Numbered from the stretch's first letter, positions 37,903 to 62,535 are shown. The stretch is 64,000 nt of DNA from a virus (IMGVR_UViG_3300021431_000082:72047-136046), one strand, 5' to 3'. Numbers and translations: made by a program. Notes: generated by a model not told the origin, from the letters alone.

Positions 37903-38379
37903 ATGACTAATATTGAAGCATTCCTTGCCTCCGTCAGTAAGCACGCAGTCGCTGAGTAGACCAAGATTAAGGCTACCGAGTGCGGCCACATGTTCAATCT
38001 GAAGGCAGACAAGGATTATGACAATGGTGTTGTTGTTGCTAAGAATGCTTATCTTGAGGGCGATATCTATTCCATCAAGGATTCCACCGACTTTGCTGGA
38101 ACGATTGTTGATATCGCAGCTAATGGCAACTTCATCGTGCATGTTACCGATCCTGGTGATGGCCTGCTTGTTCTGACCCCGCCGCTGGCATATGTGACCG
38201 AGCCTGCTCGTTTCGCTGCCGAGGATCAGTTCTACAACGCTAAGGATTCCATCATGAGAGCTTACGAGCTTGTTAAGGATGATGAGTTCGCTGTTTCTGC
38301 TGAAGGTTTCGATACGACCCCTTCCAAGGGACAGACTGTTACTGTTACTGCTACCACCCGTAAACTCCATACGGCATAA
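37903..38379 (+). CDS. Capsid decoration/auxiliary protein (158 aa; TAG at 37957)
   Basis: AAGGAG RBS; HAVAE*TKIKAT, DYDNG, RAYEL...DEFAVS motifs. Confidence 0.8.
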
Positions 38380-38399
38380 TCCAGAGGAGGTAAAAGATT

Positions 38400-39503
38400 A
38401 TGAGAATTACGTTTGATCATGAAGTAATCTCCTCTGTTTTTGAGAACGAGGAGCAGTTCGAGGGCTTTAAGTCCCTGATGTTTGAAGCTGGCATGAAGAA
38501 CTTCAGCGAGGCTTCTATGACTATCGCCAAGGCTAACGCTAAGATCCGTGACATGTTCACAGAGATGACTGGCCTTGAAGTCGGCAAGAAGCATACGAGA
38601 ACTGAAGTGCGTAGAGCTATCCGCAGAATGCAGAATGATCCGGTTTGCTTCGACCTTATGGAAGAGGTTCTGGATCAGATCATCACTACCGGTTGGAATG
38701 AGAATCCGTGGTTCAACGAGTTTGTTGAGAAGAGAAATCCTGCGCTTGGTGATTCCATCGTATTTACGACAGAAGATGATACTGTCCTTTCTGTCGAGAA
38801 GGTTGCTGGGAATCATCACGATCTACGCAGACAGCGCCTTGGCGTTGGTTCTCATGTAACTCCGACGACCGCTTGGTATGGCGTTAAGGTTTATGCTGAG
38901 TTCGAAAAAATTCTTACCAACCAAGAAGACTGGAGCAAGCTTGTCTCTAAGGTTGCTGAGGCGTTCGTGAAGTTTGTTATTGACTTCACCTATTCCGCTA
39001 TCGGTCAAGCTACTACCAAGATGGCTACCGAGGCTAAGTTCCACAATACCGGATCTCTGTCCTATGCTAACGTCATTGCTCTTGCCGGCGAGGTTGAGGC
39101 TGTGAACCAGGGTTGCGAAGTCGTGATCATGGGTACCAAGACCGCTCTTGCTAACCTGTATGCGATTGCTCCGGCTCAGTGGATTTCCAACGAGATGCAG
39201 CAGGAGCGCAATCAGACTGGTAAGCTTGGCATTTGGCAAGGCTACAGACTGGTTGAGATTCCGAACGGTTACACCGATAAGACTCTGACCACGAAGCTTG
39301 TTGCTGACGATCAGATCCTGTTCATCCCGGTTAGCGCCGATATGAAGCTTGTCGCTATGATCGATGAGGGTGATGGTGTTATCACCGAGATCAATGATCA
39401 GGCTGTCCATATGGATATGACCTACGATTACGAGTATCAGCGTAAGATGGGCTTTGCTCTTCTGCTTCGTAGGAAGTTCGGTGTCTGGACTTCTATTGTC
39501 TAA
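38400..39503 (+). CDS. Major capsid protein (no TAG)
   Basis: 367 aa; strong codon bias; position after protease and decoration genes. Confidence 0.85.
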   Translation: MRITFDHEVISSVFENEEQFEGFKSLMFEAGMKNFSEASMTIAKANAKIRDMFTEMTGLEVGKKHTRTEVRRAIRRMQNDPVCFDLMEEVLDQIITTGWNENPWFNEFVEKRNPALGDSIVFTTEDDTVLSVEKVAGNHHDLRRQRLGVGSHVTPTTAWYGVKVYAEFEKILTNQEDWSKLVSKVAEAFVKFVIDFTYSAIGQATTKMATEAKFHNTGSLSYANVIALAGEVEAVNQGCEVVIMGTKTALANLYAIAPAQWISNEMQQERNQTGKLGIWQGYRLVEIPNGYTDKTLTTKLVADDQILFIPVSADMKLVAMIDEGDGVITEINDQAVHMDMTYDYEYQRKMGFALLLRRKFGVWTSIV

Positions 39504-39559
39504 TTACAGCGGGGCGGTGAATAACCGCCCCTTTACTTTTATGGAGGATAAAAAGGAAA

Positions 39560-40105
39560 ATGCCAAGAAAGGCTAAACCGGCTACTGATAAAGTTGCCGC
39601 TCCAATTGAGACGCCTGTTGTGGAAGTTCCCCAGGTTAAGGAGTATCAGCCGTATGATCTGATTCCGTGCCAGTCTCTTACGAGCGGCGAAATGTTTTAT
39701 AACAGCCCGAAGTCAAATACCATGTACAAATGGGATGATAACGGAGCCATCATTGATGTAACCTATGAAGACCTGATCGCTATGAAGCAGTCTCACTCTG
39801 AACTGATGTACCGCCCTTGTTTCATGATTATGGATAAGGAACTGCTTGCTCAGCCGAGATGGATGGATATCGCTAAAATTTACAGCGGTTATGACATCAT
39901 ATCTCTGAGTGACGCAGAGAAGGTTATCAATCTGGACGTTAACTCCCTAAGTAAGGCTCTTAATCGGCTTACACCGGCAATGAGAGCCGTCATTTGCAAT
40001 ACTGCCGCAGACATGATCGAGAAGGGTACTCTTGATTCAATTGCGAAGATCAAGGCTATCGACGAAATCTGCGGAACGGAACTGTACACCCTTGCCTTCA
40101 AGTGA
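39560..40105 (+). CDS. Head-completion region protein
   Basis: 181 aa; ends LDSIAKIKAIDEICG. Confidence 0.7.
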   Translation: MPRKAKPATDKVAAPIETPVVEVPQVKEYQPYDLIPCQSLTSGEMFYNSPKSNTMYKWDDNGAIIDVTYEDLIAMKQSHSELMYRPCFMIMDKELLAQPRWMDIAKIYSGYDIISLSDAEKVINLDVNSLSKALNRLTPAMRAVICNTAADMIEKGTLDSIAKIKAIDEICGTELYTLAFK

Positions 40106-40113
40106 GGTGAGTA

Positions 40114-40575
40114 ATGTTACAGCTGACGTACAACGAGATTTACAGCTCGTTCTTCTCGAAGGTAGAATCGTATGACCTCGCATAGATGGTCGAGGAACAA
40201 GCAAAAGATATGATGTCTGAGTGGCTCCACTCCGTAGCTGTTAATCCCAGAGTATTCAAACTGCTGTCAGACTTTGAGCTTGATGATGAAATCGGAAGAT
40301 TCAGATTCCAGCTTAAGCGGACAAGTGGTTTTGATGCTGTGGATAAGGGCTACATGAAGGATGTGCTTGCTACCGGTGTGGCTCTTAAGTGGGCTGAACC
40401 TAAGTATGCTTCGGCACTGAACGTCAGCCAGGTATTCGGATAGTCTGAAGTATCATACTATTCACAGGCAAATCACATCAATGCGGTAAAGGAAATGGTT
40501 AGCGATTTGGAAGCTCGCTTCGCTAAACTGATCAGGGACTATGGAACCTACAACAACCGTTATATTGACGGATAA
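40114..40575 (+). CDS. Head-tail adaptor (153 aa; TAG at 40183 and 40441)
   Basis: YNEIYSSF at N-terminus, YSQANH motif after second TAG. Confidence 0.8.
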
Positions 40576-40888
40576 ATACGGAGCTGGATTTACTCCTGAG
40601 CAACTGGAGAAAGAACTGGAATTTCTACACAAAGAAGTTCACCGTCTACTCTATGGTAAGGAGAATGATGATCCAAAGCTACCGATTTATTTTGATAAGC
40701 TTCAGCGGATGTTAGCTGGCCTGAACGAGCTACTGGCCTGTCCGCCTGAACTTGTCAGTCTGATGAGCGACATTGAGTAGGCTCGTATCGAAGCGGCTAA
40801 TCCCGACTTTGATCATGAGGCTTATCGGCGACTGATACTTGATTCTCATTCAATACTCGACAGGATGTTTGGAGGTGTTGAAAAATGA
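40541..40888 (+). CDS. Neck-region hypothetical protein (115 aa; TAG at 40778)
   Basis: Read-through gives ...YRRLILDSHS and a TGA overlapping the next ATG. Confidence 0.75.
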
Positions 40889-42030
40889 TCACACTTCTGG
40901 ATAATCAAACTCGACTTATGAATGGGTTTCAGGGAAAAGCGCACGAATCGCAATCAGACATGGTTCTTGAAGCCACCTGGGGACGCAATGGTTCTGACAA
41001 GGTAGCGTATATATATGACTACTTCCATGATGACCAGCCCGATCTTGCTTAGGGTATGAGCTATTCGCAGTACACCACAAAGACAAAGATCGACATCAGA
41101 TATAATCTGACCGCTAAGGCATCACTTGCGAAAGACCAGAACGAATCTCATATCATGTTCCGACCGAGCGTTGAGCGTAAATTAACCAACACTTGGCCAC
41201 TCGATTACTACCCTACATCGTTCGGGAAGAACGCAGAGTTCCCCGTGGGGCTTTTTATTGATATCCCCGATAATAGAAATATCTATCGCAAATGGTTAAT
41301 ATGTGACCGGACATACTCCGAATCATATGTCTACTATCTAATTCTCCCGTGTAATTATTATTATACATGGGTGAAGGATGATAAGACATATGGCATGTGG
41401 GGTGTGGCACGTATCCAAAATTAGTACAATAGCGGTACGTGGAGAGCCAATATTACAAGTACTGTAGAAAACCAGGATCTTGGTTGGCTCCCAAATAACA
41501 GTTACACAAAGACTATTTTTTACGACACTAGGTTCGCTATTTGTGATGATATGCCTGAACCGATTGTTTGGAAATGTTCCAAAGTATCGACTGTACATCC
41601 GTTCGGGATCTACAAACTGACATTCTATCAGGATCGCTTTAATGCAGAAACTGATAAGTTTGTCGATGGCTTTTGGTACTGTGACTACAATCGGCAGAAC
41701 ATATCCAAAGAGCCTACGACTGAAATTACTCGTGTAGTGAGACTAACGCCAAGCTCCGGGCAATACAACATCCGCTCTGGACCTTATTCAAAAACTCTTG
41801 CTGCCACCATCATTGAGGATGGAGTAGACTTGACAGATAAGGCACATACCTATGGATGGCAATGCTTCATCGGAGATCAAAATGTCACTGGCGAACTAAC
41901 TCCTACTTACGATGGAAATAAAGTCACCCTTCACATGGAAAGCTATGATCACATTGGCGAGACGCTTCGTGTGGAAGTTCTCGTTGATGGTAAAGATAGC
42001 GCAACTATCGAACTGGAGGTGATCGCTTGA
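40885..42030 (+). CDS. Head-closure/neck protein (381 aa; TAG at 41050 and 41422)
   Basis: FPVGLFIDIPD, WLI, ILPCNY, QN*YNSG; joins two ORF-track fragments. Confidence 0.82.
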
Positions 42031-42623
42031 CGCTTGCTGAACGCAAAGTATTTTACAAAGACGAGATTGAACGCCTCCGCAATCTTACACAAATTACTCA
42101 GCATGAAAACATCAACTATAAGGAGAAGATCAAACATGTTCTCCTAAATAGTAAAGAACTTCTCTACGCTCTCAACAACACTGAGTTTGAGGGAAAGGAT
42201 GCCACCGCTGCTGATTACTTTGGTGTAAATATCCTGCCGTATATTATTGATCCGAATACCAGGCATATTGATCGGACCACAATTATGTACGACACAATCC
42301 ACTCAACTTACGCCGCTTATAATCCTGATGCTATCAAAATCCAGTATCTTCGTTTTTTAATTCTCGTACCACCGGCTGAGGCTATTGATACTCTTACCGG
42401 GATTCCAAGGCATGATCTGGTTGGGGCGATTATCGCAGACATGTTTGCCGGCACTAATATCTTCGGATGTCAGTGTAGGCAAATTGATGACAAAGGCGGA
42501 TCGACCGATTAGATGTTTATTTCTCGTGATATGTGGTTTGAGATTCATGCTCCTAACAACCGGATACGAGATGGAAAATTCATGCAGAATATTGTCAGGT
42601 CTGATTATCCTGGCAAACCGTAA
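42027..42623 (+). CDS. Tail completion protein (198 aa; TAG at 42510)
   Basis: ILPYII, RHDLVGAII; read-through ends at TAA overlapping the next ATG. Confidence 0.75.
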
Positions 42624-43366
42624 TGGCAGAGAAATTAAAACTGGAAATTGATGAGCTGAAGCTTTATTTCGGCTACGACTATCATGTCGGAAACATTACG
42701 ATACATCAACCCACTATGGGTCAGATTATCGACTATGGCGAACGTGAATACTATTCAATGGTTCATTGCCTAACATCAATCCCAAGTGACGCTAAATAGC
42801 TGTTATGGGAAAGCGGGATTGATTACTGTAAGATTAGCGATTTTGAGTACTTTATTCATATGACTCGGAACCTTTCTCAAGAGCAGACGAGTGTCCTTCT
42901 GGGCGACTTGGATTTGTCGAAGATGAATGTATATAAGAAGGATGAGGATCTGTTCCTTGTTGATGAAGAGCGTGGTCTCATCATTGATAAGATGGTTCAT
43001 CTTAATATTGCTACATACCTTCGTATGCTCCACAACATTAAGACCAAACCGGAGAAAACTAAGAGTAAAATTATCCGTGATATTCTTATAGAAGATGATA
43101 AGCGGAAGCGTGAACTTCACAAAGATGATGAGTACCAATCTGCTCTTCTGCCTATGTTTTCAGTGCTTGTAACTTCTGGGATCTATCGGAAGGACGAACT
43201 GAAACAGGTTGGGCTATATGAATTTTTTAATACAGTTAACCGTTTACCGATGTTAAAAACTGCTGCGGCGGTAATGAACGGTCTTTATTGTGGTTTTGCG
43301 GACTACAGTAAGAACCGTGCAATACTCGACCAGGCAAACATTTACCGGGATATTCCCAAAAACTAA
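42623..43366 (+). CDS. Conserved tail-region protein (247 aa; TAG at 42797)
   Basis: ITIHQPTMGQIIDYGEREYYS...IPSDAK*LLW...ISDFEYF. Confidence 0.82.
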
Positions 43367-43384
43367 TCATGGAGGAAATACAAA

Positions 43385-44200
43385 ATGATTCTGAAGAATC
43401 TAATGATCGACCGTGTTATCGACCTTACCGACTACGACAGATAGACCGGCCTTCGTCGTTTCACGCTGCCTGAAGTTCAGGACTTCTAGATCAACGTGAC
43501 GACTCAGGAAGACGAGATCACCGATGCTACCGGTTCTCCGATTGCTATTCTTGAGTCCGCTAAGTCCGCTGAGTTCTAGGGCAACTCTTCTTTCACCAAC
43601 CTTGAGCTGCTTGCTTATCAGTCTGCTGCCGATGACAACATCCTTACCAAGGATATCAACGGTATGGAGATCATCGAGGTGCTAACCATTACAGATGGTA
43701 AGGCTACCCTATCTCATACTCCTGTCGGCACGACTGGTAGCGAAATCGAGTATGTCTATGTTCGTAACTCCGATGGTACGAATGGTGACTACATGGAGCA
43801 GAGCACCGAGGCTGCTGCTGCCACTGCTACTGCGAAGGCTAAGTTCTCTCTGAGCGGTAAGGAACTGACCTTCGATAGCTCTCTGAATGGTACTTCCATC
43901 TATGTTGACTACAAGTTCAATGCCACCTCTGGTATGTACTTTGAGTCTCTGGATGATAAGTTCACTACCTCTTCCAAGATCGTTGTCCGTGTCCTTTGCA
44001 GAAACGTCTGCGATGATAACATGGTCACCGTGCTTGCTATCGTCTGCGAGAACGCTAAGCTGGCTTCCGCATTCGATCTGAGCTTCGCAAGATCTGAGAC
44101 TCATCCGTTCACCTATCGAGTCATGCCTGCGTACTGCGGCACTTCCGGTAAGTCTCTGTACAAGATCTACGTGCTTGATACTGACGACTACAACGAGTAA
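43385..44200 (+). CDS. Major tail (tube) protein (271 aa; TAG at 43442, 43487, 43577)
   Basis: GGAGG RBS; strongly biased codons; ends HPFTYRVMPAYC...LYKI. Confidence 0.82.
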
Positions 44201-44680: not shown

Positions 44681-44926
44681 ATGAATCCAAAGCTAGTCTA
44701 CTCACGTATGTTTCATGCAACATATGACACGAGTAAATGCGTCCGGGTTGTGAACCCATCTCAGATGTAGTTCTATCTTGAGAATGACGCTATGCCGAAA
44801 GATATTTATATCACAAAAAATTTCAAGACCGATAGAGATATGGTAGTTATGGTCTTTGATCGGAATGAAACCGCTGAGTTATATAAGCAGTGGGAATCCA
44901 ATAGAAAAGAGGTTGTAACCGCTTGA
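44681..44926 (+). CDS. Small conserved protein (81 aa; TAG at 44768)
   Basis: VRVVNPSQM*FYL...DIY...VMVFDR.ET.ELYKQW. Confidence 0.72.
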
Positions 44927-46129: not shown

Positions 46130-46783
46130 ATGCAAATTAAGAATGATATTGGACTAATCCCGGTAACTGAAGTTGGTGCTCTTCCACCTGAAGCCAATAT
46201 GCAAATCCCAGACCCTGATCTGCTGAACTATTACAGGCTCGCTAAAGAGCGGGTCTATTTTATTGACTTCGAGATTGATGGAACACTTATGTCTCTTATC
46301 AAGGAGATTATCAGAATTAACATGGAAGACATGGGTAAGCCGGTCGAGGAGCGAATTCCGATTGTATTCCCGATTCTATCTTATGGTGGGGATCTGGATG
46401 TGACCTACACCTTCATCGACACATGTGCCATGAGCAAGACGCCAATCATCACAGTTAACATGGGCGTGGCCATGAGTGCTGGTGTACTACTGCTTCTTGC
46501 TGGGCATAAGCGTTATGCGTTAAAGCATTCTGATGCTATGATTCATTCTGGTTCTGGTGGAATGGAAGGAACATTTGAGCAGATGGAAGCCAGCCAGAAT
46601 TTTTATAAAAGCCAGATTGCAAAGATGCGTGAGTATATTCTTGACAGGACAAAGATTGATCCGAAGGTATTCAATCGTAAGAAGACTAAGGATTGGTATA
46701 TAAGCGCTAACGAACAACTTGAGCTTGGAATCGTAGATTGCATCGTCGATGACTTAGACGAGGTGTTTGCAGTTGGAGTTTAA
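46130..46783 (+). CDS. clpP: ClpP-like serine protease
   Basis: ILSYGGD, GVAMSAG (Ser), AMIH (His), WYISANEQLELGIVD. Confidence 0.85.
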   Translation: MQIKNDIGLIPVTEVGALPPEANMQIPDPDLLNYYRLAKERVYFIDFEIDGTLMSLIKEIIRINMEDMGKPVEERIPIVFPILSYGGDLDVTYTFIDTCAMSKTPIITVNMGVAMSAGVLLLLAGHKRYALKHSDAMIHSGSGGMEGTFEQMEASQNFYKSQIAKMREYILDRTKIDPKVFNRKKTKDWYISANEQLELGIVDCIVDDLDEVFAVGV

Positions 46784-47237
46784 ACTTATATCTTTTGACT
46801 GTAATTCATATGATACTGGATTTGCAGTATTTAAGCATGGCAAGCTTATTAAGTAGGGTGTGCTTAGTGAAAGACCAAAAAGTAAAAAGCCAAAAGCTCG
46901 ACTAGACGGTATGATATCGCAGATATATCAGAAAATTATTGATGAACATGCGAATATTGTTGTTGTTGAAGATGAGGTTGTTGGAGAAAACATACACGCA
47001 ACTGTTGTTTTATCAAAAATAATTGGTGCAATTATAGGGAAGTGCATAGAGTTGAATATTCCATATTTGTGCTATGCACCGTCTCAATGGAGATCAAAAC
47101 ATGGTATTCAGGATAGCAAGGCTAAACGCCAAGAGCTAAAGCGAATGGCCATCGATAAAGTTAAAGAAATTTATAATTCTGACGTGTCAGACGATGAGGC
47201 TGAAGCAATCCTTATTGGAGCCGCCTGGTATTTATGA
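46773..47237 (+). CDS. RuvC-like Holliday junction resolvase (154 aa; TAG at 46854)
   Basis: ISFDCNSYDTGFAV, VVVED, DDEAEAILIG; the first catalytic Asp lies upstream of the TAG. Confidence 0.82.
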
Positions 47238-48971: not shown

Positions 48972-49343
48972 CAGAGTTTATAAATAAGTATAGCATATAT
49001 AAAACAGATTCTAATCGAGAATAGTTTCTTTAGTCAACGATTAAAAGAAGTTACGTCCCACTTCTGGAAAAAGTAGATATATGTCAAAGCATTAAAAAGA
49101 ATACAGAATGTATTACAAGCGTTCCAAAAAGCATTGCTTCATATGTTATGTTTTTGTTATTCATTATAGATAGCTATACATCTATTAATATTAATTTTCA
49201 ACAAGAGCGCTTATTTTCTGAATATGATTTATTAAGGGCGAATGGTGTTATATCACTATTGCTTGGTTTTATAAGTGAGGAAGAAATATCCGAATTTAAT
49301 TTAATTATGGATGCTATTAATGATAAGGAATGCGGAGTTATTT

Positions 49344-50039
49344 ATGGGGAAAAAGACACACCTATCACTTAATGTTCCGGTTAATATGCAGTAGCTTAAT
49401 TGGGGAAAGGATGTTCTTAAATCATATTTACATAATGCGAAAATAATATACAAACGGGAACATAAAAGTTTATTAAAAGAGATTGAGGCGCATGGGCGAA
49501 AGATCTATGATCTAGTGATAGCAGAATATTATGCTTCGTACACTCCTAAATATTATGACAGACACTATACTACTCCAGGTCATCATCCAGGCTTTAATCT
49601 TTATAGAGCTAATAATTTTATTATTGATGAAGAAAATATAGTCTCATATGATTTTAACTCATAGTATATGAATTTATTACCATATTATTCATTTTGGCAA
49701 AAGAAAAATTATAATGATGGAAATGGTTTTGTCAAAAGGGGATATGGACGATTCAAAGTATTTTTAATGGTGTTAGCTGGAAAAAGAAAGTTCCCACAGT
49801 GGGCAAAAGACGAAGATGGAAATTTCAAAAAGGATGATGATGGTAAGCGTTATGTGGTTGTTACTGAGAAGTAGTATAGTTTTAAAGTACCATATGGGCC
49901 ATTACACAAAACATTCTCTGGCAAGCCATATCAAATACTAAATGAAGCGGCTGAGCGCCTTGTTTTATATTATAATCGAGAACTTATAAAAAGAATAAGA
50001 GAAGGCATTGAAGGATTAGAAGTAAGGTGGGTTAAATAA
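49344..50039 (+). CDS. Pre-tape-measure hypothetical protein (231 aa; TAG at 49392, 49662, 49872)
   Basis: Open through three TAGs; YYASYTPKYYDR motif; TAA lies 2 nt before the TMP start. Confidence 0.7.
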
Positions 50040-50041
50040 AT

Positions 50042-53000
50042 ATGGCGGATCTTAAATTTTCATCTAAAAGCAAGATGTTAGATATGGATGCCATTACAAA
50101 GAGCATTGAAAACACAGTATTATCGTAGTTTCAAAAGCTTACGTCCAATCTACAAAAAGAATTAAAACTAGAGTTAGAGGTACCTATTGAGTTCACAGAA
50201 CAGAAGAAAAGTCTAAACAAGTAGATTAGTAATCTACAAAGGTAGATTGATAACTCTCTGTAGGATGTTCGATAGGAACTTCAAAAAAGCATTGAAGATC
50301 GGTGGAAATTCAATCGTACCGGAAAATATGGCACGAACAAAAAGAATCAACCAATAAATCTTAGTGATTATACTAAGATGGTTGATATCAGAGACTATAA
50401 AAACAAGCGCCTCGAAATGATTAAGCAATTAGCTGATATTACAGATGATGGGATCAAATTAAAAGATCCAAAAAATCTACATCAGCTAGTTCAAAATATA
50501 AAAGCTTACGAAGAAGCTTTGCGCAGATTACATGAACTTTCTGCACAGAGAAATATGAAGTATAAGCCTGATGAGGGCGAGCTTAATTTTGAACAATTAT
50601 TTCCAGGGTATAAGCTCTCGGGTGATATGCAAGCAAATGCAGACGCAATGGCAAAATCCTTTGCAACTGCATATAAGACGTCGTTGCAATCAGAATTAGA
50701 AAGCAAAAAAAATGAATTATCCAATATATTGCTTGATATTAATAGAGCTGTTGCAAGAAGCGCAAGCAAACAAGAAGGCGTTGGGTATGAATATGATCAG
50801 AAGGCGTATGAAAAAGCGGTAAAAGCTAGGGAGGACGCCCAGCTTCGCATTGATCATAGCGAAGCTCAGATTGAAAACTCTATCAGAGATGAGATTAATG
50901 CGTATATAGAACTTGAACGAAGGCTGAATAGTCCTGACCTAGATTAGAACAGTGCGCTTTATGAAGATCTGGCTGATCGCGAAGATAATAGTTTGGCGCG
51001 ATTAAAAAGAGCGATTGAACTAATTGATAAATATAAGATTGAAATTCCAGAATTAACAAAGGTCTACAATGAAAATTGGAATCTGAGTGGAGAGACACTT
51101 GGCGATCTTATTCGTGAAAACGTAGACGGTTTCGATTAGAACACTTCGTTCTTAAGTGGTTTTGAAAAAGATGCCGAAAGGGCAAAATCAGACTGGATAA
51201 AAGCAAATAGAGATGTTGATACAGCAAAGTAGTATCTTGATTCTTGGAAGGACTTATTACTTCAGTTAAAAGATACTGATCAGATGCAAGAAGCCGTTGA
51301 TAATATTTAGAAAGAAAAGATTGATTCTGAATTACGATCTTTAAGAGAAGAAAATGAACGGCTCTCTTAGCGTATCCAGGTTTTAGAGGATGAACTGAAT
51401 ACATTTCAAAACGAAAATGTATATAACGATACTGGTTATCATGATGCTCAGGTAAATACTGTAGCAAAATCTGAAGATACGCATTCTCTTGATGCTGAAA
51501 TAGATGATGTCAATTTATTAAACAATGCGATAAAAGATGTCATCAGCTCAATTCATAGCAAAACTGAGGCGTTCGGATCAGAACGTGATAGTGTTGTAAA
51601 CTGGCTTGATGATGAAATAGAAAAAATAGATGAGCTATCTCGAAAGGCTGATAGAGTCACACCAGATCTTTCTTTAAATAATGGTGGCGAGCTTGTAAAT
51701 AACAGCACTGCGAATGGTAATTCATTTTCTGCTTTGCAAGACTCGGTCTCTTCTGTTACTTAGAGTGTCATACGATTTGGAGAAGCTGTTGATACGGCGT
51801 CGCAAAAGCTCGGTAATATTAAAACCAAAAATGCGTCCAGTCCAAAAGAAAGTTCATAGTCCGATTTTGAAAAACGTGTGGCATCTGCGGCCAAAGCCCT
51901 TAACAATTAGACAAACCAGTTTATTTAGGGCGTTGATGTTATTGTTAAAACAGAAGAAGAATATCAGCGGTTGAGCCGCAAAAGTAATCGCTCAAGTAAG
52001 GAAAACACCAAGCTTAATACTTTATTAAATGAACGAGCCGCCGCTCGTGATCGAATGGATAGGAACCATGTTGACCACGAAACATTTATGGCACAGCGCG
52101 AAAGGATGGAATCAGCGTCAAGGCGTGCCGCATAGGCGATTCAAGAAGAAGTCAGAGCAGAACGCGAACTTGCCAAAGCTGAAGCGGAGCAAGCAGAACA
52201 GGCAAGAATTGCAGCTCAAGCTAAAGAAGAAAAAGCGAAACGTGACGCCGCCGCAAAAGTTGAACAAGAAAGACAGGCAGAGCTTGCGGAAACTTATAAA
52301 AAGTTTGACTACCTTGAAAAGAATATGAACCGATATGTTCAGGGTACTCTGCTTGGCGATTCTGGCGATGACTGGGATGACTTTTCAAAGAATTTTGAGG
52401 AGACGTTGGCGTTTGCCAAGAATCTAAAAGCTGATACAGTAGGCATTATTGAAGCTAAAAGGAAATTAAATAATGCCGAGGAAGAGGCGTATCTTAATGC
52501 CGAAATTGAAAACGGAGTTCGTCTTGAGCAGCAACGTGTTAATCTAATTGCCCAGGCAAAAACCGAGAGAAAAAATGAAGCGGATGAGCTTGTGAAAATG
52601 GATCAGGATATTGGTCGAGCTTTTGCCACAAATACCTCGTCTAAATCCGCTAAAGATTCATATAGTATTTTTGCCAGTACCGGCATGATAGACGAACAAG
52701 CCACAGAAGAAAAAGAATGGCTTGCAAAAATATCTGAATATCAAGATTTACAATCAAAGATTTCGGATCTCTTATCAAAACAAGCAACGGTTGGATTGAC
52801 GCCAAATCAATCATAGAAGCTCGATGATTATCGTGATAAGCTTGCCAGCCTTGAATTAGCCTTTGATGATCTGGAAGATGGCGTTTTAGTCTCTGATAAA
52901 GTAAAAGATGCGGTAAATAACATGGCTGCGTCTGGAGAAAGGGATATAACTTCATATAATAAAATTCTTAGTGAGTTTAATAAGAATTTTGCTTTTGTCC

Positions 53001-56000
53001 AGAAGCTTTCAAATGGGAGTGAAGACAGCATTAAGGAAGCCCTCCGGCAATATATAGAAGATAATGGTGGACGGGATTTAAAGAACTTCACTGGTGTTGG
53101 CACAAAGAATGGAGTATCAAATTTTACCGCAGAATTTACCGGTGCTGATGGCGCAATCAAGAAATTAAATGCCTCTTTAAACACTACAGATAATACACTG
53201 CGTGGTGTTGTTAAGTCTGGAAGGAGTACTGGATAGTTCTTTAGCGAACTTGTTGATACAATCTCTAATAAGTGGAGATCATTTATTGGTTATCTGTCTA
53301 CGCAGGTAACTGTTATGCAACTCTGGGGGATCTTAAAACAAGGTATTGCAGTAGTTAAAGAACTTGATTCTGCATTTGTAGAATTAAAACGTATTTCAAA
53401 TGATTCCGCTTCTGCCCTTGAGGACTTTAGAAAGAGATAGTTCGAACTTGCCGATACTGTTGGCACTACATCTGCAACGATTATAAATGCTGCCACGGAG
53501 TGGGAACACCTTGGCTATAGCATTAAGGAAGCTGAGGAGCTTGCAAAGACGTCAGCTATCTACAAAAATATCGCTGATGGTATGACTAGTGACTCTGAGG
53601 CAACCGAAGATCTCGTCAGTATTCTTAAGGCATACAACTTCGAGGCTAACCAAGCAATGGATGTTACCGATGCTCTTATTGCGACATCCAATAACTATGC
53701 GGTAACCGCTGCTGATATCGGTAATATTCTTAAGCGCTCTTCTGCTGCTCTTGCTATGGGTGGTAACTCATTCGAGGAAACCGTAGCTCTTGGTACGGCG
53801 ATGAACGAAGTGCTTCAGTCGGCAGAAGTCGCCGGCTCAAGTTTGAAAGTTCTTTCTCTCCGTCTCCGTTCAAGTAAGACCGAGCTTGCAGAAATGGGTG
53901 AAGAGACCGACAATCTTGTTGAGTCTACGCCAAAGCTTAGGACGCAGATCAAGGCTCTAACAAAAGGTTTTGATATCCTTGGTTCTGATGGTAAAACGAT
54001 AAAGAGCACGTATGAAATAATGAAAGGTATTGCGGCAGTCTGGAAGGATATGTCAGACGTAGATCAAGCCGCACTCCTTGAACTTATAGCCGGTAAGACT
54101 CGTGCACAAGGCGTGTCAGCACTTTTGAGTAACTGGTCCCAGGTTGACGAGGTCCTTAAAACCATTGCCGAAGACGAAGGTACCGCTCTTAGGAATAATG
54201 AGGCGAAGCTAAATACAATACAAGGTAGGCTTACAAAACTTACAAACGCAAGTCAGAAACTCGCATCTGATGCGCTAAATACCGAACTGATTAAAGATTT
54301 TATTAGTGGCGTAACTGGAGCGGTAAACGCTTTAGACACACTCATTCAAAAGATCGGTATCCTTCCAACTGCTGCTGGAGCAATCGGTCTCGGTACAACA
54401 TTTACAAAAGGCGGAGGTCAGCTCAATCAGAGCTCATATCCTAAATGGATGAAATCCTACAAGGCCCCCGGCATAGTGCGTGGTAACACGAAACAAGTTC
54501 ATGCGTTCTAAAGATTTATGCTATAAGAAACAGACCTAGCGGGTACTAGGTCTGCTCACAGGGATCATCCAAGTACAAAGTACTTAAGAAGATCATAAAT
54601 AACACAGGCGATAATACCGCACACGATATTAAACGCCGCAGACTATAGAAGCTATCTCAATAGCATTTACCTCCTTCCAAGCAACGCTTATCAGTTACAG
54701 GAGGCATTATAGCATAAATCTTCAGAGCACATGAGCGAGGCTATGCGTAGTTAACCCGACGAAACTAGCGGACTGATCATCCGCTCTATCAATAGCAAAT
54801 TGATTTAAGACTGGGACATGCAAAGCATTTACATGCGGAGCATTATCAGCAGCGAAGCCATCTTATGATGGAACGTCCAGAGACTATAATGTCGGTGTGG
54901 AGCCGCTTGAATTGCGAACTTCATAAAGGGATAGTCCAAAGAATGTGTAACACACATGATCCAGGTATCGGAACCTGCAAACAAATCCGAGTTTGTTTGT
55001 AATCAACATTCATGCGGATTTATGTTGATTATCTTTAGCAAGATATGCAAATATTTTATTGCGTATATTGTCACACAGGATAAGTCGTAGAACACGGCTA
55101 AGTTAAATTCTATGAAAAGATATAGAGAACTCAAACAAGGGCACGAGAACTAATCTCCTGCCATATTATTATCCGAGTATTTGGCCGCTTTCAAACCGAG
55201 TATTTGTCAGAACTTGCTTCCGCAGTTATTACACTTATACGTCTTCCCTACATCTCCCATTCCAAAGATACCGAATATCCCTATCTTCGCAGCTTTCCCA
55301 ACGGTGGAGAGCTTTTTTAAATCCGTAGAACCGCAGATGGGACAATGGGGAATGTGGGTGGGTTGAGGCTGTGTAAGTTTTTTAACTCGTTCTTCAGCAT
55401 CATCCCATTCTTTTTTATTTTTTGCATCTGCTATTGCTTTAAGTTGTTTAAAGTACTCTGTTTCACCATCGTGTATAATATGTTCTTCGATATATTTATC
55501 TTTTTCGTCTTTTGGAAGTTTAAACCATGCGACAGTATCGTATTCAAATATATCCCATACATGATGACACACAGGGCAATGATCTGATTTTGCGAAAGCT
55601 TTTAACGCCATACTACCGCACCTTTTACAAAAGACTAATTTTGCTTCATCCATTATAAACCTCCTTATATGTATGGTTCTTTGATATTGTATCATGTTTT
55701 TGCTTGTAGGTGGCATTCTCAACGCTTATAAGAACCGTAATCCAAAGGGTGGTACTACTAATCTGTTTTAGACAGATATGTTTTCCGATGATCAAAAATC
55801 TAGCATACAGTTCATGAAAGACAATGATCTGTTAACGAAGGAAAACATAGATCATTTGACCGAGTTTAACAGTGCTCAAAAGGAAGTTCTTGAACTGATG
55901 GGCAAAAAAGACATCGGTATGGAAGAAGCCATCAAAGAACTTGGTGAGTCTGCTCAAGAGTCTGGTGGATTACTCCAACTCTTTAAAGAAAAAGGTGTTG

Positions 56001-59000
56001 ATGCATTTAAAGCCGTTGGTCTTGCGATTGGCAACATGTTAGCTGCCGCAACAATCTCCTTCCTTGCAACACAGGCCATGGCGTTTATTGACGAGTGGAT
56101 CAACCACACCAAGAATCTGAATAATTCCGCCAGGGAATTCGGCGCTCAGATGAAGCGCACTGAGTCTGATATAGATTCATATGGTGAAAGAATCGCCGCC
56201 CAGAAATCTATCATTGAAGACAATAAGTCTTCTATTGAAGATGTCACAACCGCTCGGGCTGAGCTCTATAAGATTCAGTCTGAGATGATTGCCGCATATG
56301 GTGGCGAAGGCGAATCTATCAAAGCTATTACTGATGCTATTAACGGACAGAATGACGCTCTCGACAAGAACATTGAGAAGCTAAAAGAACAACAGCATCA
56401 AAAGGCTATTGAAGATTTTAATAAAGAGAACGATGACTGGCGTAAGGCGACAGTACGTTAGATGAAGAATGCGACTATGACAGATGATGGCGTGATAATT
56501 CCATCAACCATGACTGCTTTTGAAGAGTTTATGGATAATATGGAGAATTATCAAGTTAATCTGTCCGCAATAAACGACGCATTACCCGAGAAAGAATTCC
56601 AAGACGTTATCAAAAAACATGCGGATCAAAATGACTGGACTGATTTATCTTCCGCTGTTGGAAACGTCAATCAATTCGTCAAGCTATATGATGAATTAAT
56701 GGATACGGCTAGTATGCTGCGTGATTCATCAAACGGTGGAATCAGTCAAGATAGATACGATTATATATCAAAGTATATAACGCAGTTGAGTAAGCCGGCT
56801 AGGGATACAGCATAGAGCAATCGTGATCTTTATGAACAGGAGATGCTTCATCAGATCCGTTAGAGAAAGGATCTTAACGATAGGTATTCAGACCTATCTG
56901 ACCTTTATGGTAAGTATCTCAAAGCGGATACAGCGGAGTTACAGCACGAAGTCTATGAAGCATATTCTGCCGCAGTTAAACAGATAGCCGACGATAAATC
57001 AATTAGTTATGGCATACGACAGCAGTTCCTGAGTCTGTATCCAGATTTAAAGGCAGAGGCGGACAAGTGGACATTCGAGGTAAACTTTAAAGCCAATAAA
57101 GATGGACTGCGTGACGAAATACAGAAACAGATTGATGCAATATCTGCTGCGATTGGTCATGCTGTAACTCAAGAAGAATTAGATCATTGGGACGATTCCC
57201 AATATGACGCTATCGCAAATTCAGCTTATAGTAATTACGCCAGGACGCTTTCACAAAACGGAATATCATCCGTACAAACTGGGAATGCTATCGCTGTTGA
57301 ACAAGGTGTATTAGATACAAATACTACTGGCGCTTTAAAAGATTTTATCGAAAAGAAAGCCCCTGGGGCAATTAACGATGTCGATAAAAACCTAATCGCA
57401 GCTGTAAAGGATGTAAAAAATTTCCAAAGTGCTTTTACCAGAGCTTGGAATAAAATTGGCAAAGATGTTCCGAATGACGGGCAAAAGGTAAACGTCGCTT
57501 TAAAGCTAATGGCCAGAGAAGCCGAAAGCACAGCAAAGACCACAGAGAAAGAACTCAGTGGCATGGATCTTTCCGACGTTGCCAAGCATCTCACAAAACT
57601 AGGCGATGTTTATGACAAGCTTAAAAAAGATGGCGAAGTAAAATGGAACACTATTGATACCAAGGATTTCAAAGAATCCTTTGGCGACATTAAAGATGAA
57701 ACTGGTGAATTCCAAAAAGCATGGGATAATTTTCATCAGATTTTAAGTTCCACACCTAACGATACGAAAGCTGTACAAGATGCATTTGATACTCTTGCGA
57801 GTTCGTATGTTTACAATTCTGATTGTATGCAAATGCTCAATGAGAATAACAAAGATCTTGTTATTGGTATGTTGAGCGATAATGGTGTAGCAAATGCGGC
57901 AGATGTTGTTAATGATGCATTAAATCGTAAAGCTGCGGCGGCTGAATACGATGCATTTAGTGAGGATCTCCTGGCACAAAAAGGTGTTGATCTCGCTAAT
58001 GTAAGCGGCGAAAGCGCAACTGCTACACTTGAAGAAGCGACAGCCTTTTTAAAATAGGCTGGTTATGCCGAAGAAGATCAGGCGGCAATTGCACGGCTCA
58101 TCCTTGAACAGTGGGCTCTTAACGGATAGCATATCGACACATCTGATAATTGTAATGCACTTGCTGATCTTGCGTAGATGGCTGGGGTTGCTGCCTCTTA
58201 GATCATAGCATTAAACAACGCTATGGCCGGTGGAACTACATCTGCATCGTAGGCGTCTGGTGGGAACTTCGCCATGCTGAACAATGGCGTAGATTCACAA
58301 AAAGCCAACCAAGAATATCAGAAAGCTTAGAGAGAATATGAAACTAAAAAAGCGCTTGAAGATATTCGACAAGCCAGAGAAAACATACGCTTTAAAGGTA
58401 GCGGTGGATCTGGTAGTGGCGGTGGCTCTGGCGGTGGTGGCGGGAACAAAGAACCGTCCAAAACCGACAAAGAATTCGACTACGTCAACCGTGCTCTTCA
58501 GATCATGCAAGAGCAAAATGATGAACTCCGTGAAAAGGTAGACAATCAGTACGTCATCCTCCAAGATGCCCAGGATAATCTCGCCGAATTTACATCTGCA
58601 TCTGATAGCCTGAACGAAGCAGAAACTAAACTCACCAGTCTCGGCGTTGATACAAAGACTGACGACTTCAAAAACTTTATCGCCACTCTCGATGAAGTCC
58701 AACAAGTCAACGATGAGATGAACCAGATGATCGACGATACCCCAGGATATGTATTGCCTGCCGGTGATACATTCGCAAAGGTTGAAGCCGAGAATTATGG
58801 TGATCTCATTGAAGCCGCAAGAGAATACAAGTCTGCTCTTGGTGACGTTGAGAAAGCCAAAGAGAAAGTCAACAGCAAAACTCTTGATGAGAATGGAACC
58901 GGTCAGCTTACATTCATCAAACAGCTTCAGGAATCAGACAAGAAACTGATTGAAGCCTACGAACACGCCGCTAATTCTTATAGTACCGAATGGGAAGAAT

Positions 59001-61453
59001 ATAAGAAAAAGATCGAAGAAGCCTTTAAGGAAGACGGTCGTGGCGAAAAGTATATCCAGGATATCATGTATGGTAATCTCGATCCCGAAGAATGGGAGCG
59101 GATGATCACATATGATTCCAATAACCAAGCCGAAAAGGATAAGGTCGAACTGCTTGAGCGTGGTCAGACAGCCTATGACCATCAGAAAGAATCACTGAAG
59201 TCCATGCGTGAATGGCAGACGAAGCTTAACGAGGATGTTCAGAAAGAATATGAAATGCGTCTGAACATTGTCAAGGCTGAGATGGTCGCCATTGAATCCC
59301 GTATGAACGAAGCTCAGCATGATCTTGATATGAAGGAAATCCTTGGTGAGGTCGTGCAGGAAGCTGATTATCAGCGGTTGATTGGAATCTCTCAAGAGCA
59401 GGTCTCTAACTACGAGAAACAGCTGAGCGTTCTTAAGGAGCAGCTTGGTACTCTCGATGAAGGTGAGCAAGCCTGGTATGACTGCAAGTCTCAGATCGCT
59501 GACTGTGAACAGAGCATCCGGGATTGTGTAAAACAACAGGCCGAATGGAATGATACCATTCTGAGAATGCCGGTTGAGAACATCTCCCGCTTCCTCGGTT
59601 TAATCCAGAATCTCGGACAAACTCTTGAGAACTGGTTATCCGTAAATGATGCCAAGGGTATTGCCCAGACTGCCGAGCAGATCATGACATCATGGACCAC
59701 AGCTTATGATCAGATTGCTGATGATGAACTCGGATTAATGAAGCAGCTGGAAGATTACCAGGATTTGCTCGAAAATTATGATCTCGGATAGAACAAATTT
59801 TCTGAGGTAAGTGACGAGATTCAGAGTGCTCGTGATTCTGTTGAGTCTCTGGTCGAAAAGATGATCGAGTTGAATAAGCAACTGCTTACTCTTCCGATTG
59901 ATAAGATCGCTGAGATGACCACATATCTTGATGGTACTCTCTCCGACCTACAGACGGTTCAGTCCGAGCATGAGACGGCGATCAACACCGTTATCGAACT
60001 GATTACCAAAGAGCAAGAAAAGCTTGAAGACGAATATACCAAACTTGAAGAGTCAATACAAAAGCAGATCGAACCACTACAAGATCAGCTGGATACATTG
60101 CAGAAAGCAAATGATGCCCGTGATCGTGAATTGGCAGTCGAACAGGCTTTATACGAACTGGAAAAAGCTCGTGAGCAAAAGACAGTCCAGGTCATCCGTA
60201 ATGGTCGTGTCGAATACGCAGCCGATGAATCGGCAATCAGGGACGCCCAACAAGGTTATGATGATGCGGTTTACAATAAGCTTACCGGAGAACTCCAAGA
60301 TAAGATCGACGAACTGAACGACTCTCTTGAGAAATCTCGTAAGTCAACCGACGATCAGGTTAAAGCTCTCGAAGACCTCAAGAAGGAAAGATGGGAAACC
60401 ATCATGCCAGATACTGAGCGTAATCGTAACGAAGAGATAACCTCTCAGTTCTTTAAGGATATGTTTGGAGTTACTAACTGGAAAGAACTGGTGCTCGCCG
60501 GCAAGGACGCAAACGGTAACTACGCAGATGAAGCTATCTATCAGGGAACTCGTGCTAGTTACGAACAGAACTCTGTACAGATGCGTGATACCCAGCGTCA
60601 AATCGATGCTAACAATCTGATCACAGATTAGCTGACCAGACTCGTTGAAGATTTCCAGGCTGACCGGATTACGTCAGAGCAACTCTTCGCTAAAGTGTCC
60701 ACGCTTATGAGCTTTGTCAAAGATGGAATCATTACCGGACAAGAGCGGCTTGAGAACACTCTCTCACTCGGTGATTACTCCACTCTCGGTGCTGCATTAA
60801 AGGGAGCCGTAGAACAACGTGGAAGCCAGATCGAACTGTTCGGAGAAAACCTTAAGGTTGCGACTGATAACCGGAATAAGGTCAATGCTCTCATTGGAAA
60901 ATGGGATAACTTTAAAGTTTGGTACGATACAACATACAAACAGCTTTATGAACAATATAGGAAGATTGACTTCATCGGCGACTATGTGAAGAATATCTCC
61001 GACCATATTGATGATGACGATGATGAAAGGGGACCAGGGACTGTTTTTGAAAGTTCATCACGAGACCCTGAAGATTATCGTGGAGACGCCAGTTATAATG
61101 ATGTTGGACATTATTCTGATGGCCTTGAAAAAGGAGCTATTGGAAGTTTAACTCCATCTGATCGGTTCAAAGCCATCCAAGCACTCGGTCTTCGCAAACT
61201 CGATCCCGATGAATTCCCCGCCATTCTCCATCTCGGTGAAGGAGTCATCAATCCTCGTCAGCAATCCACCATGCTCGATAACATGCGTCAGGCTCTTGCT
61301 CTTGGAGGATCAGGAACCGGAGCTGTCATCCAGATGTCCTTCGGAGATATTAGTCTTCCATCTGTAACCAATGGTCAAGACTTTGCGGAATCTCTGGCTG
61401 TGCAATTCCAGCCGGCGATGAACCAGGTCTTCTCAAAGATCTTCAGGCGTTGA
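50042..61453 (+). CDS. Tape measure protein (about 3,375 aa after splicing; 30 in-frame TAG; one intron)
   Basis: One reading frame throughout. TMP core ELDSAFVELKRIS...LGYSIKEAEELA...ATEDLVSILKAY...AVGNV-type helices; Gly/Ser linker at about 58395-58445; C-terminal EFPAILHLGEGVIN. Confidence 0.85.
54419..55702 (+). ncRNA. Group I intron in tape measure gene (boundaries are a prediction)
   Basis: Q-like ATCAGCAGCGAAG near 54845; R-like CCAGAGACTA 54877-54886; S-like AAGGGATAGTCC near 54926-54937; P7 GACTA/TAGTC; P3 CCGAC (54756)/GTCGG (54891); P8 TGTGGAG/CTTCATA; TAA at 54509 otherwise closes the frame. Confidence 0.75.
55207..55653 (-). CDS. Zinc-ribbon membrane-associated protein inside the intron
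   Basis: AAGGAGG RBS before MDEAK; four CxxC pairs; HCPICGSTDLKKLS...IGIFGIFG...YKCNNCG. Confidence 0.8.
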   Translation of the reverse strand: MDEAKLVFCKRCGSMALKAFAKSDHCPVCHHVWDIFEYDTVAWFKLPKDEKDKYIEEHIIHDGETEYFKQLKAIADAKNKKEWDDAEERVKKLTQPQPTHIPHCPICGSTDLKKLSTVGKAAKIGIFGIFGMGDVGKTYKCNNCGSKF

Positions 61454-61478: not shown

Positions 61479-61484
61479 ATAAAT

Positions 61485-61585
61485 GAAAAAGGTGTCACCG
61501 TGAAGCAAGCGGTTAGCCCTAGTCACAAAGTTTCATTCCTAAAGAATGACCGCTCAGTTTTGCAGGCCGAGGCGGTCATTTTTGT
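61485..61585 (+). ncRNA. Putative type I antitoxin sRNA
   Basis: About 100 nt between the consensus promoter and the terminator AATGACCGC...GCGGTCATTTTT; convergent with toxin ORF. Confidence 0.6.
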
Positions 61586-61656
61586 ATGGTCTCAATAACC
61601 TCTTTCAAGGCTACGAGGATAAGCAGTACGAACATAAGTTCACACACTTCAATCAT
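61576..61656 (-). CDS. Type I toxin-like hydrophobic peptide 1 (MIEVCELMFVLLILVALKEVIETIQK)
   Basis: GAAAGGAG RBS; own promoter TTGCCA-17-TATAAT at 61759-61731; single TM segment. Confidence 0.7.
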   Translation of the reverse strand: MIEVCELMFVLLILVALKEVIETIQK

Positions 61657-61892
61657 ACGCAGCTCCTTTCTGGCCTCCGAAGAGTCCTAATCAGAGCTAA
61701 CCGCCTACCGTTTTGGTGACACCCTTTGACATTATAGCTGATGCTTTTCGCATTGGCAACCTCTGCCGCACATATCGGGCGGCCAGTCCTGGGCAAGACG
61801 GTAAACTACCCAATCAAACCTACCACACCCCGGCAATAACTTCCTATATTGCAAGAGACAAAGGAACGGCGTCAACACAGAACTAACGTGAA

Positions 61893-61973
61893 TTAATCTT
61901 TTAAGTAATCGAGAACAGATACAAGTAGCTGTAACTACATAAGTATCACGCCAAGAAAAGCATAATCGATCAT
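61893..61973 (-). CDS. Type I toxin-like hydrophobic peptide 2 with in-frame TAG (MIDYAFLGVILM*LQLLVSVLDYLKD)
   Basis: AAAGGAGGTG RBS; TAG at 61935-61937; TAA stop; TGGTATAAT promoter near 62032-62040. Confidence 0.68.
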
Positions 61974-62111
61974 ACACATCACCTCCTTTAAAACATACAA
62001 GGAGAGCTCTGGTGGTGTGGTAGGTCTTTATATTATACCACCTGTCCTTTATTGGATGGGTGGTCTTTTATTGCTAACAAATGTTTATTTGTTGGTTAGG
62101 AGAAAAAGGAA

Positions 62112-62318
62112 TTGATTAAATGTAACGAATGCGAATACGGAGACAATTGTCCGTGTGGCTACAGCTATTGTAATGCGGCCTGTCTGACAATTCAAAAGCT
62201 GAAGCGACACACATGTGGAAAATGCTATTGGTACTCCGATGTCGGCGTTGAATGCTGTGAACATGAACACGATCCTACCACCTATGATTCACCGGCATGT
62301 AAATATTTCGAGGAATAA
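62112..62318 (+). CDS. Small Cys-rich protein
   Basis: 68 aa, multiple CxxC; TTG start. Confidence 0.6.
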   Translation: MIKCNECEYGDNCPCGYSYCNAACLTIQKLKRHTCGKCYWYSDVGVECCEHEHDPTTYDSPACKYFEE

Positions 62319-62319
62319 A

Positions 62320-62535
62320 ATGGATATTTCAACGAACATTTCATACGATCCCAGTGTCTGCGAACACTGTTTTAATAATCCAAAGAACAACCCAAATGCA
62401 AGTGGTATCTGCTGTTGCTCTCTTCCGTATATGACGAGGACGGGTTTGCCTTCGTATTAGACTTCGACCTCAACAGACTATAAGGTCAACAGCGGCGTTA
62501 CTAATATTAACATTACTAATACATGTATAACTTAA
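62320..62535 (+). CDS. Small Cys-rich protein with Ser/Thr-rich tail (71 aa; TAG at 62458)
   Basis: CEHCFNNP...ICCCSLP; read-through ends at TAA abutting the next RBS. Confidence 0.65.

Follow-up and report, generated by a model that had tools for sequence, protein, structure and literature searches.

TAG is predicted to encode serine in the late genes of a siphovirus-like phage from ruminant guts

Phages that reassign a stop codon have so far been taken to read TAG as glutamine (Gln) or TGA as tryptophan (Trp). Which amino acid, then, is read at the TAG codons in the late genes of the phage behind IMGVR_UViG_3300021431_000082:72047-136046, a ~152-kb, siphovirus-like phage of ruminant guts? 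We analysed this stretch of 64,000 nucleotides ("the window"), which spans positions 72047-136046 of one viral contig of 151,909 bp; coordinates are those of the window unless marked as genome positions. A sequence-only reading had proposed that TAG encodes serine (Ser), not Gln, and this proposal is supported by the codons that relatives carry at the same sites and by a Ser-type transfer RNA with anticodon CUA (tRNA-CUA). From the codon comparison and the tRNA architecture, we predict that TAG is Ser in the late genes (packaging, head, neck and tail), with a probability of roughly 0.88.

The plus-strand late module begins at about 23,400 and includes genes for exonuclease, terminase, portal, head, capsid, neck, tail tube, PhoH, ClpP, RuvC and tape measure proteins. 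Translation with table 11 fragments its genes, and reading TAG as a sense codon fuses the fragments. Across the curated late genes (24881-62535, plus strand; 11,422 codons) in-frame TAGs number 60-62, and neither TAA nor TGA occurs in frame. The two largest frames are the clearest cases: with TAG read through, 50042-54511 encodes 1489 amino acids (aa) with 18 TAGs and 55694-61453 encodes 1919 aa with 12 TAGs, neither having an internal TAA or TGA. If the three stops were equally likely, the probability of all 30 being TAG would be about 5e-15. TAG is also kept at the same places in a near-identical contig (L001) and in diverged recoded relatives (L028-L031), and it is practically certain that TAG is a sense codon here.

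Ten of the eleven coordinates cited in the sequence-only reading are plus-strand TAGs with the quoted peptide context. The eleventh, 61935, is CTA on the plus strand, i.e., a minus-strand TAG. It is the mid-helix TAG (between GVILM and LQLL) of a putative short hydrophobic open reading frame (ORF) at 61893-62027 on the minus strand, for which we found no homologues.

Assigning the amino acid requires comparators in which the aligned residue does not itself depend on how TAG is read. Scanning viral contigs with the capsid protein yielded 15 relatives of ~150 kb, which fall into three lineages, together with a near-identical fragment. The relatives are ~40% identical to the capsid protein and have no in-frame TAG in the aligned structural genes, so they can be used as standard-code comparators, and since the aligned residues were taken from their DNA, the comparison is not circular. 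With this first set, Ser was aligned at every locus, by both TCN and AGY codons, at 37957, 41422, 42797, 43487 and 43577; 40778 faced Ser or Thr, 29627 and 32530 faced Ala, and the remaining TAGs faced mixed residues, with Gln appearing once, in a weak alignment. Adding lineages brought one exception at each of three Ser sites, namely Pro (37957), Gln (43487) and Thr (43577), and these come from a single genome, G005.

All five sites were among those where the sequence-only reading had proposed Ser motifs, and these motifs stood up well: Ser occupies every lineage at 41422 and 42797, four of five at 37957 and three of four at both 43577 and 43487, the last being poorly aligned there. The motifs proposed at 53438 (L027, strain X4 and distant tape measure proteins have Ser) and 59789 (Ser in L017 and L028) were likewise borne out. 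At 46854, in the RuvC gene, one lineage agrees with Ser and another has His, so that motif is weak, and the one claimed for the adaptor at 40441 is not supported, as relatives have Gly or Asp.

To combine all sites, we used a Codetta-style likelihood. For each amino acid, we took the distribution of residues aligned in relatives to the window's own sense codons and asked which distribution makes the TAG-aligned residues most probable. Ser was best with the first relative set (Ser 0, Thr -12, Ala -13 and Gln -30 log units). With more lineages and local identity of at least 0.5, Ser occupied 20 of 35 columns, with Ala at -36 and Gln at -59 relative to Ser; with all identity bins, the values were Ser 0, Ala -44, Thr -55, Gln -56 and Tyr -187. 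The tabulation that the sequence-only reading had suggested thus gives TAG columns enriched for Ser and its usual substitutes Thr and Ala, not for Gln or tyrosine (Tyr). Its caveat that coiled-coil contexts in the tape measure protein read like Gln was also correct. Gln is favoured only in the bin below 25% local identity, which holds the unalignable, Gln/Glu/Lys-rich tape measure coiled coils, and because the lean is confined to that bin, it reflects composition and not homology.

The tail tube protein allowed a deeper comparison. An exhaustive search of 1.84 billion cluster representatives gave 370 matches, of which 130 (representatives of 50%-identity clusters) were aligned. This protein has three TAGs, as the sequence-only reading stated for the major tail protein: 43442, 43487 and 43577. 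Column 65 (43577) contains 62% Ser and 28% Thr, with neither Gln nor Tyr; column 35 (43487) contains 42% Ser, 25% Thr, 12% Asn and 10% Gln, with no Tyr; and column 20 (43442) contains 20% Thr, 20% Ser, 13% Ala and 2% Gln, again with no Tyr. In the columns where ordinary Ser codons of the query lie, Ser reaches at most 31%, less than in columns 65 and 35.

Variants closer to the phage can be read directly at two sites. Among the variants listed, loose ends of divergent strains carry CAG AAT TCG TAT AAC AGT at 41422, where TCG replaces TAG, and CAG TCT TTT GAG CTC at 53438, where TCT replaces TAG. Contigs from RNA libraries span the TAGs at 41050 and 42797 and leave them unchanged, which argues against editing, with DNA carry-over being possible.

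Protein databases are a less safe guide. A large protein database holds many full-length homologues of both giant tail proteins, the closest of which show Q at TAG columns. The contigs behind them (L028-L031, our recoded relatives) yield those proteins only when TAG is translated as Q, so these Qs are artefacts of a gene caller that assumed table 15 while the contigs themselves read TAG. We therefore rejected Gln from database homologues and trusted only Ser and other non-Gln residues; more distant tape measure proteins show real Ser at the columns homologous to 53438 and 53234. The recoded relatives' own TAGs allow a test in the reverse direction: at 45 such columns (40 window positions), the window has Ser 13 times, Thr 10, Asp 6, Ala 5, Lys 3, Gly 3, Leu 2 and Gln 0. 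The absence of Gln speaks against code 15, because TAG to CAG is a single transition and would be the commonest "synonymous" swap. The likelihood in this direction places Ser level with Thr, Ala at -16 and Gln at -37.

The second line of evidence is the tRNA. ARAGORN finds ten tRNA genes at genome positions 49999-52522 (minus strand), outside the window, one of which has the anticodon CUA. This gene (genome 51797-51883, minus strand; 20 kb upstream of the window) is 87 nt long and type II, a canonical 7/5 cloverleaf with a 7-bp acceptor stem, G at discriminator position 73 (G73), and a variable arm with a 6-bp stem and 4-nt loop. A tRNA-CUA with a Ser body, i.e., with a long variable arm and G73, was what the sequence-only reading expected elsewhere in the genome, and that is what was found, not a Gln-type suppressor. 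Infernal aligns it at full length to Rfam RF00005 (52 bits), with G at the discriminator and a 16-nt variable-region insertion, as large as that of the phage's 88-nt tRNA-Ser(UGA). Its D-arm is near-identical to those of that gene and of the tRNA-Ser(UGA) of Bacillus phage BcoS-136, and its global alignment score is 22 against the phage's tRNA-Ser(UGA) and 1 against the phage's tRNA-Gln(UUG), a 73-nt tRNA unlike it in type. G73 is present in three of four reference tRNA-Ser genes (BcoS-136 tRNA-Ser(UGA) has U73), while the phage's tRNA-Leu and the two tRNA-Tyr genes that we examined carry A73.

The anticodon arm has a different affiliation from the body. Five type I tRNA-CUA genes on unrelated viral contigs share this arm, TCAGACTCTAAATCTGA, so it goes with the reading of UAG and not with amino-acid identity. 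We read the gene as a mosaic, predicted to join a Ser-type body to an anticodon arm optimised for UAN codons. Himeno and colleagues reportedly switched E. coli tRNA-Tyr to Ser acceptance in vitro in 1990 by means of G73 and a lengthened variable arm. Two further arrays contain the tRNA-CUA: one (L063) is near-identical, and the other (L064), on another metagenome contig, differs in composition and has the tRNA with two substitutions, both in loops. Scanning viral contigs with the anticodon arm gave several coding or aberrant matches and no further type II suppressor with G73, and a search of the standard-code relatives G001-G005 gave short arm-level matches and no orthologue.

Other tRNA-like genes turned up alongside it. 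ARAGORN labels the tRNA-CUA as pyrrolysine, as it does any CUA anticodon, and this candidate is excluded by the long variable arm: tRNA-Pyl is compact with a very short variable loop, and goes with PylRS and the pylBCD genes. No match to the tRNA-synt_2b class II core was seen in the 83%-complete genome either, and the pyl genes were not specifically searched for. The same array (L037; genome 49500-53000) has a tRNA with an 8-nt anticodon loop at L037:2864-2936 (minus strand; "gggt" in ARAGORN, 36 bits with Rfam) and a 90-nt tRNA-like gene at L037:1191-1280 (minus strand; 45 bits with Rfam, missed by ARAGORN) whose anticodon arm is replaced by 36 nt. On two viral contigs of 155 kb and 204 kb (L045:1480-1600 and L056:1880-1990) there is a tRNA-like element with the same CUA anticodon arm, a normal T-arm and an aberrant 5' half, which ARAGORN does not call. 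A 149-kb contig from the metagenome of the standard-code relatives has a 76-nt type I tRNA-CUA with the same arm (L047:2281-2356).

How might Ser reach these codons? Bacterial seryl-tRNA synthetase (SerRS) uses the long variable arm and G73, and it ignores the anticodon. The host SerRS should therefore charge the phage tRNA-CUA with Ser, since both features are present, and the use of the host enzyme is to be expected because the 83%-complete phage genome showed no match to the class II synthetase core (tRNA-synt_2b, to whose family SerRS belongs). Once abundant, the charged tRNA would outcompete release factor 1 (RF-1) at UAG; no RF-1 release-factor domain was found in the same genome. We think it likely that a clade of ruminant-gut siphophages uses TAG=Ser stably, by means of a purpose-built mosaic tRNA with a Ser body and a UAN/amber-type anticodon arm.

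Recoding may also double as a timing gate, as has been proposed for TAG=Gln phages (bioRxiv 10.1101/2021.08.26.457843). Late messages with TAG would be truncated until tRNA-CUA accumulates. Minus-strand genes fill positions 1-21,400 and are taken to be early genes; by a tally of greedy ORF calls, they have almost no in-frame TAG and at most two of them terminate in TAG. A gate fits the tRNA array being on the strand of these largely TAG-free genes, the lack of TAG in the capsid protein and ClpP genes, the TAGs within the first 60 codons of many late genes, and the TAGs placed 2-3 codons before TAA or TGA. The last of these concerns two genes (29185-29196, plus strand; 18705-18719, minus strand) with a terminal TAG followed 2-3 codons on by TAA or TGA, which may terminate in the standard way early and gain a short Ser-containing extension late in infection. 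A comparable arrangement, in which TAA directly follows a TAG at the end of an ORF, is described for a Zeta crAss-like phage (PMC12386605).

Some observations weigh against Ser, and we set them beside the readings that they favour. Gln (NCBI table 15), as in crAss-like, Lak and phAss-1 phages, is the sole phage decoding of TAG in the literature found, is printed at the TAG columns of the closest database homologues and profits from the lean in the lowest identity bin. Gln codons also face TAG in some relatives at 50222, 50243, 51368 and 51761, and 51368 (CAG) and 51761 (CAA) are well aligned, in one relative each. In addition, most single sites are uninformative: among the 31 TAG sites with a decent comparator, the majority residue is Ser at only 8, about a quarter, and Gln at 1. 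That is the rate expected for Ser, because genuine Ser codons at the same divergence retain Ser at ~30% (self-fraction 0.30). Gln is nevertheless very improbable, as the database Qs are table-15 artefacts, its likelihood is 59 log units below Ser in well-aligned columns, it is absent from the 45 reverse columns and from the most conserved tail tube column, and the suppressor is type II with G73, unlike the 73-nt tRNA-Gln(UUG). Another small residue, Thr or Ala, draws on the reverse-direction likelihood, where Thr fits as well as Ser, and on 29627 and 32530, where Ala is invariant in relatives. The forward likelihoods (Ala 44 and Thr 55 log units below Ser) oppose both. So does the tRNA: tRNA-Thr and tRNA-Ala are type I and tRNA-Ala requires G3:U70, whereas the tRNA-CUA has G3:C70 and a long variable arm. 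We give Thr or Ala scarcely any credence.

The remaining contrary points concern the tRNA and the completeness of decoding. Acceptor pair G2:C71 is a SerRS identity element in E. coli, and the tRNA-CUA has U:A there; the E. coli rule may not apply to this host, because the phage's own tRNA-Ser(UGA) has C2:G71. The anticodon arm is identical to that of BcoS-136 tRNA-Tyr(GUA) at 16 of 17 positions (only G34 to C34 differs), and blastn against cultured phages matches the tRNA-CUA only to the 5' halves of jumbo-phage tRNA-Tyr genes. One could therefore suppose that TAG is Tyr, read by a tRNA-Tyr derivative with the same G34 to C34 change as E. coli supF, particularly as bacterial tRNA-Tyr is likewise type II and some relatives have Tyr at 41050, 34393 and 44768. 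We regard this as extremely improbable, given G73 instead of A73, a variable stem of 6 bp against 3 bp in the tRNA-Tyr of relative G004 and no clear stem in that of BcoS-136, a likelihood 187 log units below Ser, no Tyr in any of the three tail tube columns, and the five type I tRNA-CUA genes that share the arm. Mixed decoding, in which TAG is partly Ser and partly a stop or a second residue (through near-cognate tRNAs), would give both truncated and full-length late products, in regulated proportions. CheckV estimates the genome to be only 83% complete, and no phage factor against RF-1 was found in it; TAG is avoided in ClpP and in the capsid protein, the most abundant virion protein; and the two TAGs just before TAA or TGA look like leaky terminators, with many other TAGs in the first 60 codons. 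Against this, the tail genes with 18 and 12 TAGs are both essential, and unless UAG were suppressed efficiently, hardly any of their protein would reach full length; efficiency itself is beyond the reach of comparative data. We consider mixed decoding quite improbable, and Ser in the late genes remains the reading that we prefer.

TAG=Ser decoding has parallels outside natural phages. In E. coli, supD (su1) is a Ser-inserting amber suppressor, a tRNA-Ser with a CUA anticodon, and it works because SerRS does not read the anticodon. It is a laboratory point mutant of moderate efficiency, whereas the phage tRNA is a conserved natural gene with ~60 codons to serve within the window alone, and it has a Tyr-like anticodon arm, not one derived from tRNA-Ser(CGA). 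Candida-clade yeasts read CUG as Ser (NCBI table 12) through an anticodon-blind SerRS and a Ser-body tRNA with a foreign anticodon, the same route to Ser as predicted here. The yeast case concerns a sense codon in a eukaryotic nucleus, and the phage case would be a stop-to-sense change in a virus, probably conditional on infection stage. The allo-tRNAs of Acidobacteria are natural tRNAs with Ser identity and non-Ser anticodons, proposed as suppressors, and they have 8/4 or 9/3 geometry (PMC5389517). The phage tRNA differs in its canonical 7/5 cloverleaf and in being matched by genome-wide in-frame TAG use.

The closest known systems are the "code 15" gut phages (crAss-like, Lak and phAss-1), in which TAG is Gln (bioRxiv 10.1101/2021.08.26.457843; PMC9523058; PMC10607447). 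Like them, this phage concentrates TAG in late structural genes, carries its own tRNA-CUA and has a largely TAG-free early module, and a role in timing late-gene translation is plausible for it too. Unlike them, its predicted residue is Ser and its tRNA is type II with G73 rather than Gln-type, and unlike the Bacteroidota code-15 phages, it is a siphovirus-like relative of SPbeta/949-type Firmicutes phages. The two tests that define code 15, i.e., the aligned residue and the tRNA type, both come out against it here, as judged by sequence comparison. The code also appears to be undescribed, as the sequence-only reading had suggested. In the NCBI tables (Biopython copy), TAG is Gln, Leu, Tyr, Glu or Trp, never Ser, and in the full-text literature, a search that most subscription journals fall outside, we found phage TAG described only as Gln, or as "unknown" in early Lak work. 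One group assigned Gln in a different phage by tRNAscan isotype and TerL alignment.

If true, a natural TAG=Ser would be a new entry among genetic codes and the second natural reassignment enabled by an anticodon-ignoring SerRS, after yeast CUG=Ser. It would also have practical consequences. Gene callers that detect TAG recoding use table 15, so in public collections the proteins of this clade carry Gln wherever their genes have TAG, and the mistranslated sites would make up ~7.5% of putative Ser positions in the window's late genes. Table-15 translation distorts alignments and structure predictions and conceals peptides from metaproteomic searches. Table-15 homologues also "confirm" Gln, which makes a protein-level check circular. 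A share of public "code 15" phage proteins would then show Gln where the virion has Ser.

The individual TAG sites vary in how much they can say; all genes that follow are on the plus strand. The first late gene with TAG (24881-25924; phrog_24834, function unassigned) has it at 24908, codon 10, possibly before the true start, and the large protein at 26431-29196 (phrog_8308, function unassigned) has it at 29185, two codons before TAA, where it may be a leaky terminator with a back-up stop. In the exonuclease (29525-30733; phrog_284), TAG 29627 faces Ala in relatives, and homology continues upstream of the TAG. The terminase large subunit (32323-34446; phrog_2) has TAGs at 32332, 32530 (Ala in five of five lineages) and 34393 (Tyr, Ala, His, Ser or Glu). 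The TAG of the portal gene (34702-36210; phrog_2739), 34753, is upstream of the matched region, and the start may be 34798.

In the head module, the phrog_3313 protein (36383-37879), which sits where Bacillus phage Kirov has its prohead protease, has TAGs at 36521 (Ser, Asp or Met in relatives) and 36992 (His or Asp). The small head protein (37903-38379; phrog_4147) contributes 37957, where the four Ser lineages use AGT, TCA, TCT and AGC. The TAG-free major capsid protein gene (38400-39503) serves as an internal contrast. At the neck, the neck or connector protein (40114-40575; phrog_3853) has TAGs at 40183 (Leu or Glu) and 40441, with no Ser in relatives at either, and the small neck protein (40541-40888) has one at 40778 (Ser, Thr or Ala). 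The neck protein at 40885-42030 (phrog_5251) has TAGs at 41050, where two poorly aligned lineages have Tyr, and 41422, where Ser is encoded in 15 of 15 relatives (by AGT or TCT) and in strain X5 (by TCG).

Further along are a tail or neck protein (42027-42623) with TAG 42510, facing Thr or Asn, and a tail-module protein (42623-43366; phrog_4051) whose TAG 42797 faces Ser in all relatives (TCC, AGT, TCT and TCA). They are followed by the tail tube or major tail protein (43385-44200; phrog_2729) and a small protein (44681-44926; phrog_31036) with TAG 44768 (Gln, Tyr or Ala). The RuvC-like Holliday junction resolvase (46719-47237) has TAGs at 46734 and 46755, probably before the start, and at 46854, where two recoded relatives also have TAG. 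A tail-module protein with no family match (49311-50039) has three TAGs, of which 49392 faces Ser, or TAG in recoded relatives; the others are 49662 and 49872.

The first part of the tape measure protein (50042-54511; PF10145 in homologues) holds 18 TAGs. Those at 52814, 53234 and 53438, in its conserved C-terminal part, face Ser in relatives or strain X4, and the TAG columns of its coiled-coil part are unalignable. The 1919-aa tail protein (55694-61453), which in some relatives is fused to the tape measure protein, faces Ser (TCG, TCT and TCC) in well-aligned relatives at 58127, 59789 and 60629; in five standard-code relatives it has a single weak match, the tail end of the module not being conserved. 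The small Ser/Thr-rich ORF at 62215-62535 has TAG 62458, with one poorly aligned Gln and a TAG in one relative.

The gene order of the late module is that of SPbeta/949/Tsamsa-type Firmicutes phages, with protein identity of only ~28%. Cultured phages (Alicyclobacillus KKP_3916, Lactococcus phiL47, Bacillus BcoS-136 and Kirov, and Brevibacillus Sundance) were tried as comparators and rejected as too distant: tblastn against cultured phages covered five TAG columns, none of them conserved (Arg/Val/Lys, Asn, Lys, Asp and Ala). The phage is present in gut runs of sheep, goat and other animals from twelve studies, including metatranscriptomes of the probable source sample. A search of genome contigs for prophage relatives that would indicate the host found none.

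The tape measure region is split. The tape measure ORF and the 1919-aa ORF correspond to a single fused protein in relatives P0103 (3023 aa) and P0104 (3155 aa), both of which have PF10145 plus the C-terminal part. In the window and in L028-L030, the two ORFs are separated by 1.2-2.6 kb, which in the window contains a minus-strand ORF at 55207-55722. Rfam showed no intron or other RNA family at 54300-55800, even at E up to 1, and no match in the window as a whole. In two recoded relatives (L030:8961-9437 and L031:925-1401), a ToxN-family toxin gene (PF13958) lies between the two tape measure parts, i.e., an abortive-infection-type toxin within a phage tail module.

In nine relatives (L009-L016), the match to the capsid protein is broken up and covers only residues 3-284 or 133-366, which suggests an insertion in the capsid gene, such as an intron, intein or homing-endonuclease gene. 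Strains from sheep and goat have an extra 1443 letters at 40449-40461 and an extra 1536 letters at 44898-44924, and in them a 447-letter stretch (46707-47155) is replaced by 441 different letters. These changes may be mobile endonuclease cassettes, and L028 has an RRXRR/HNH gene in the same region.

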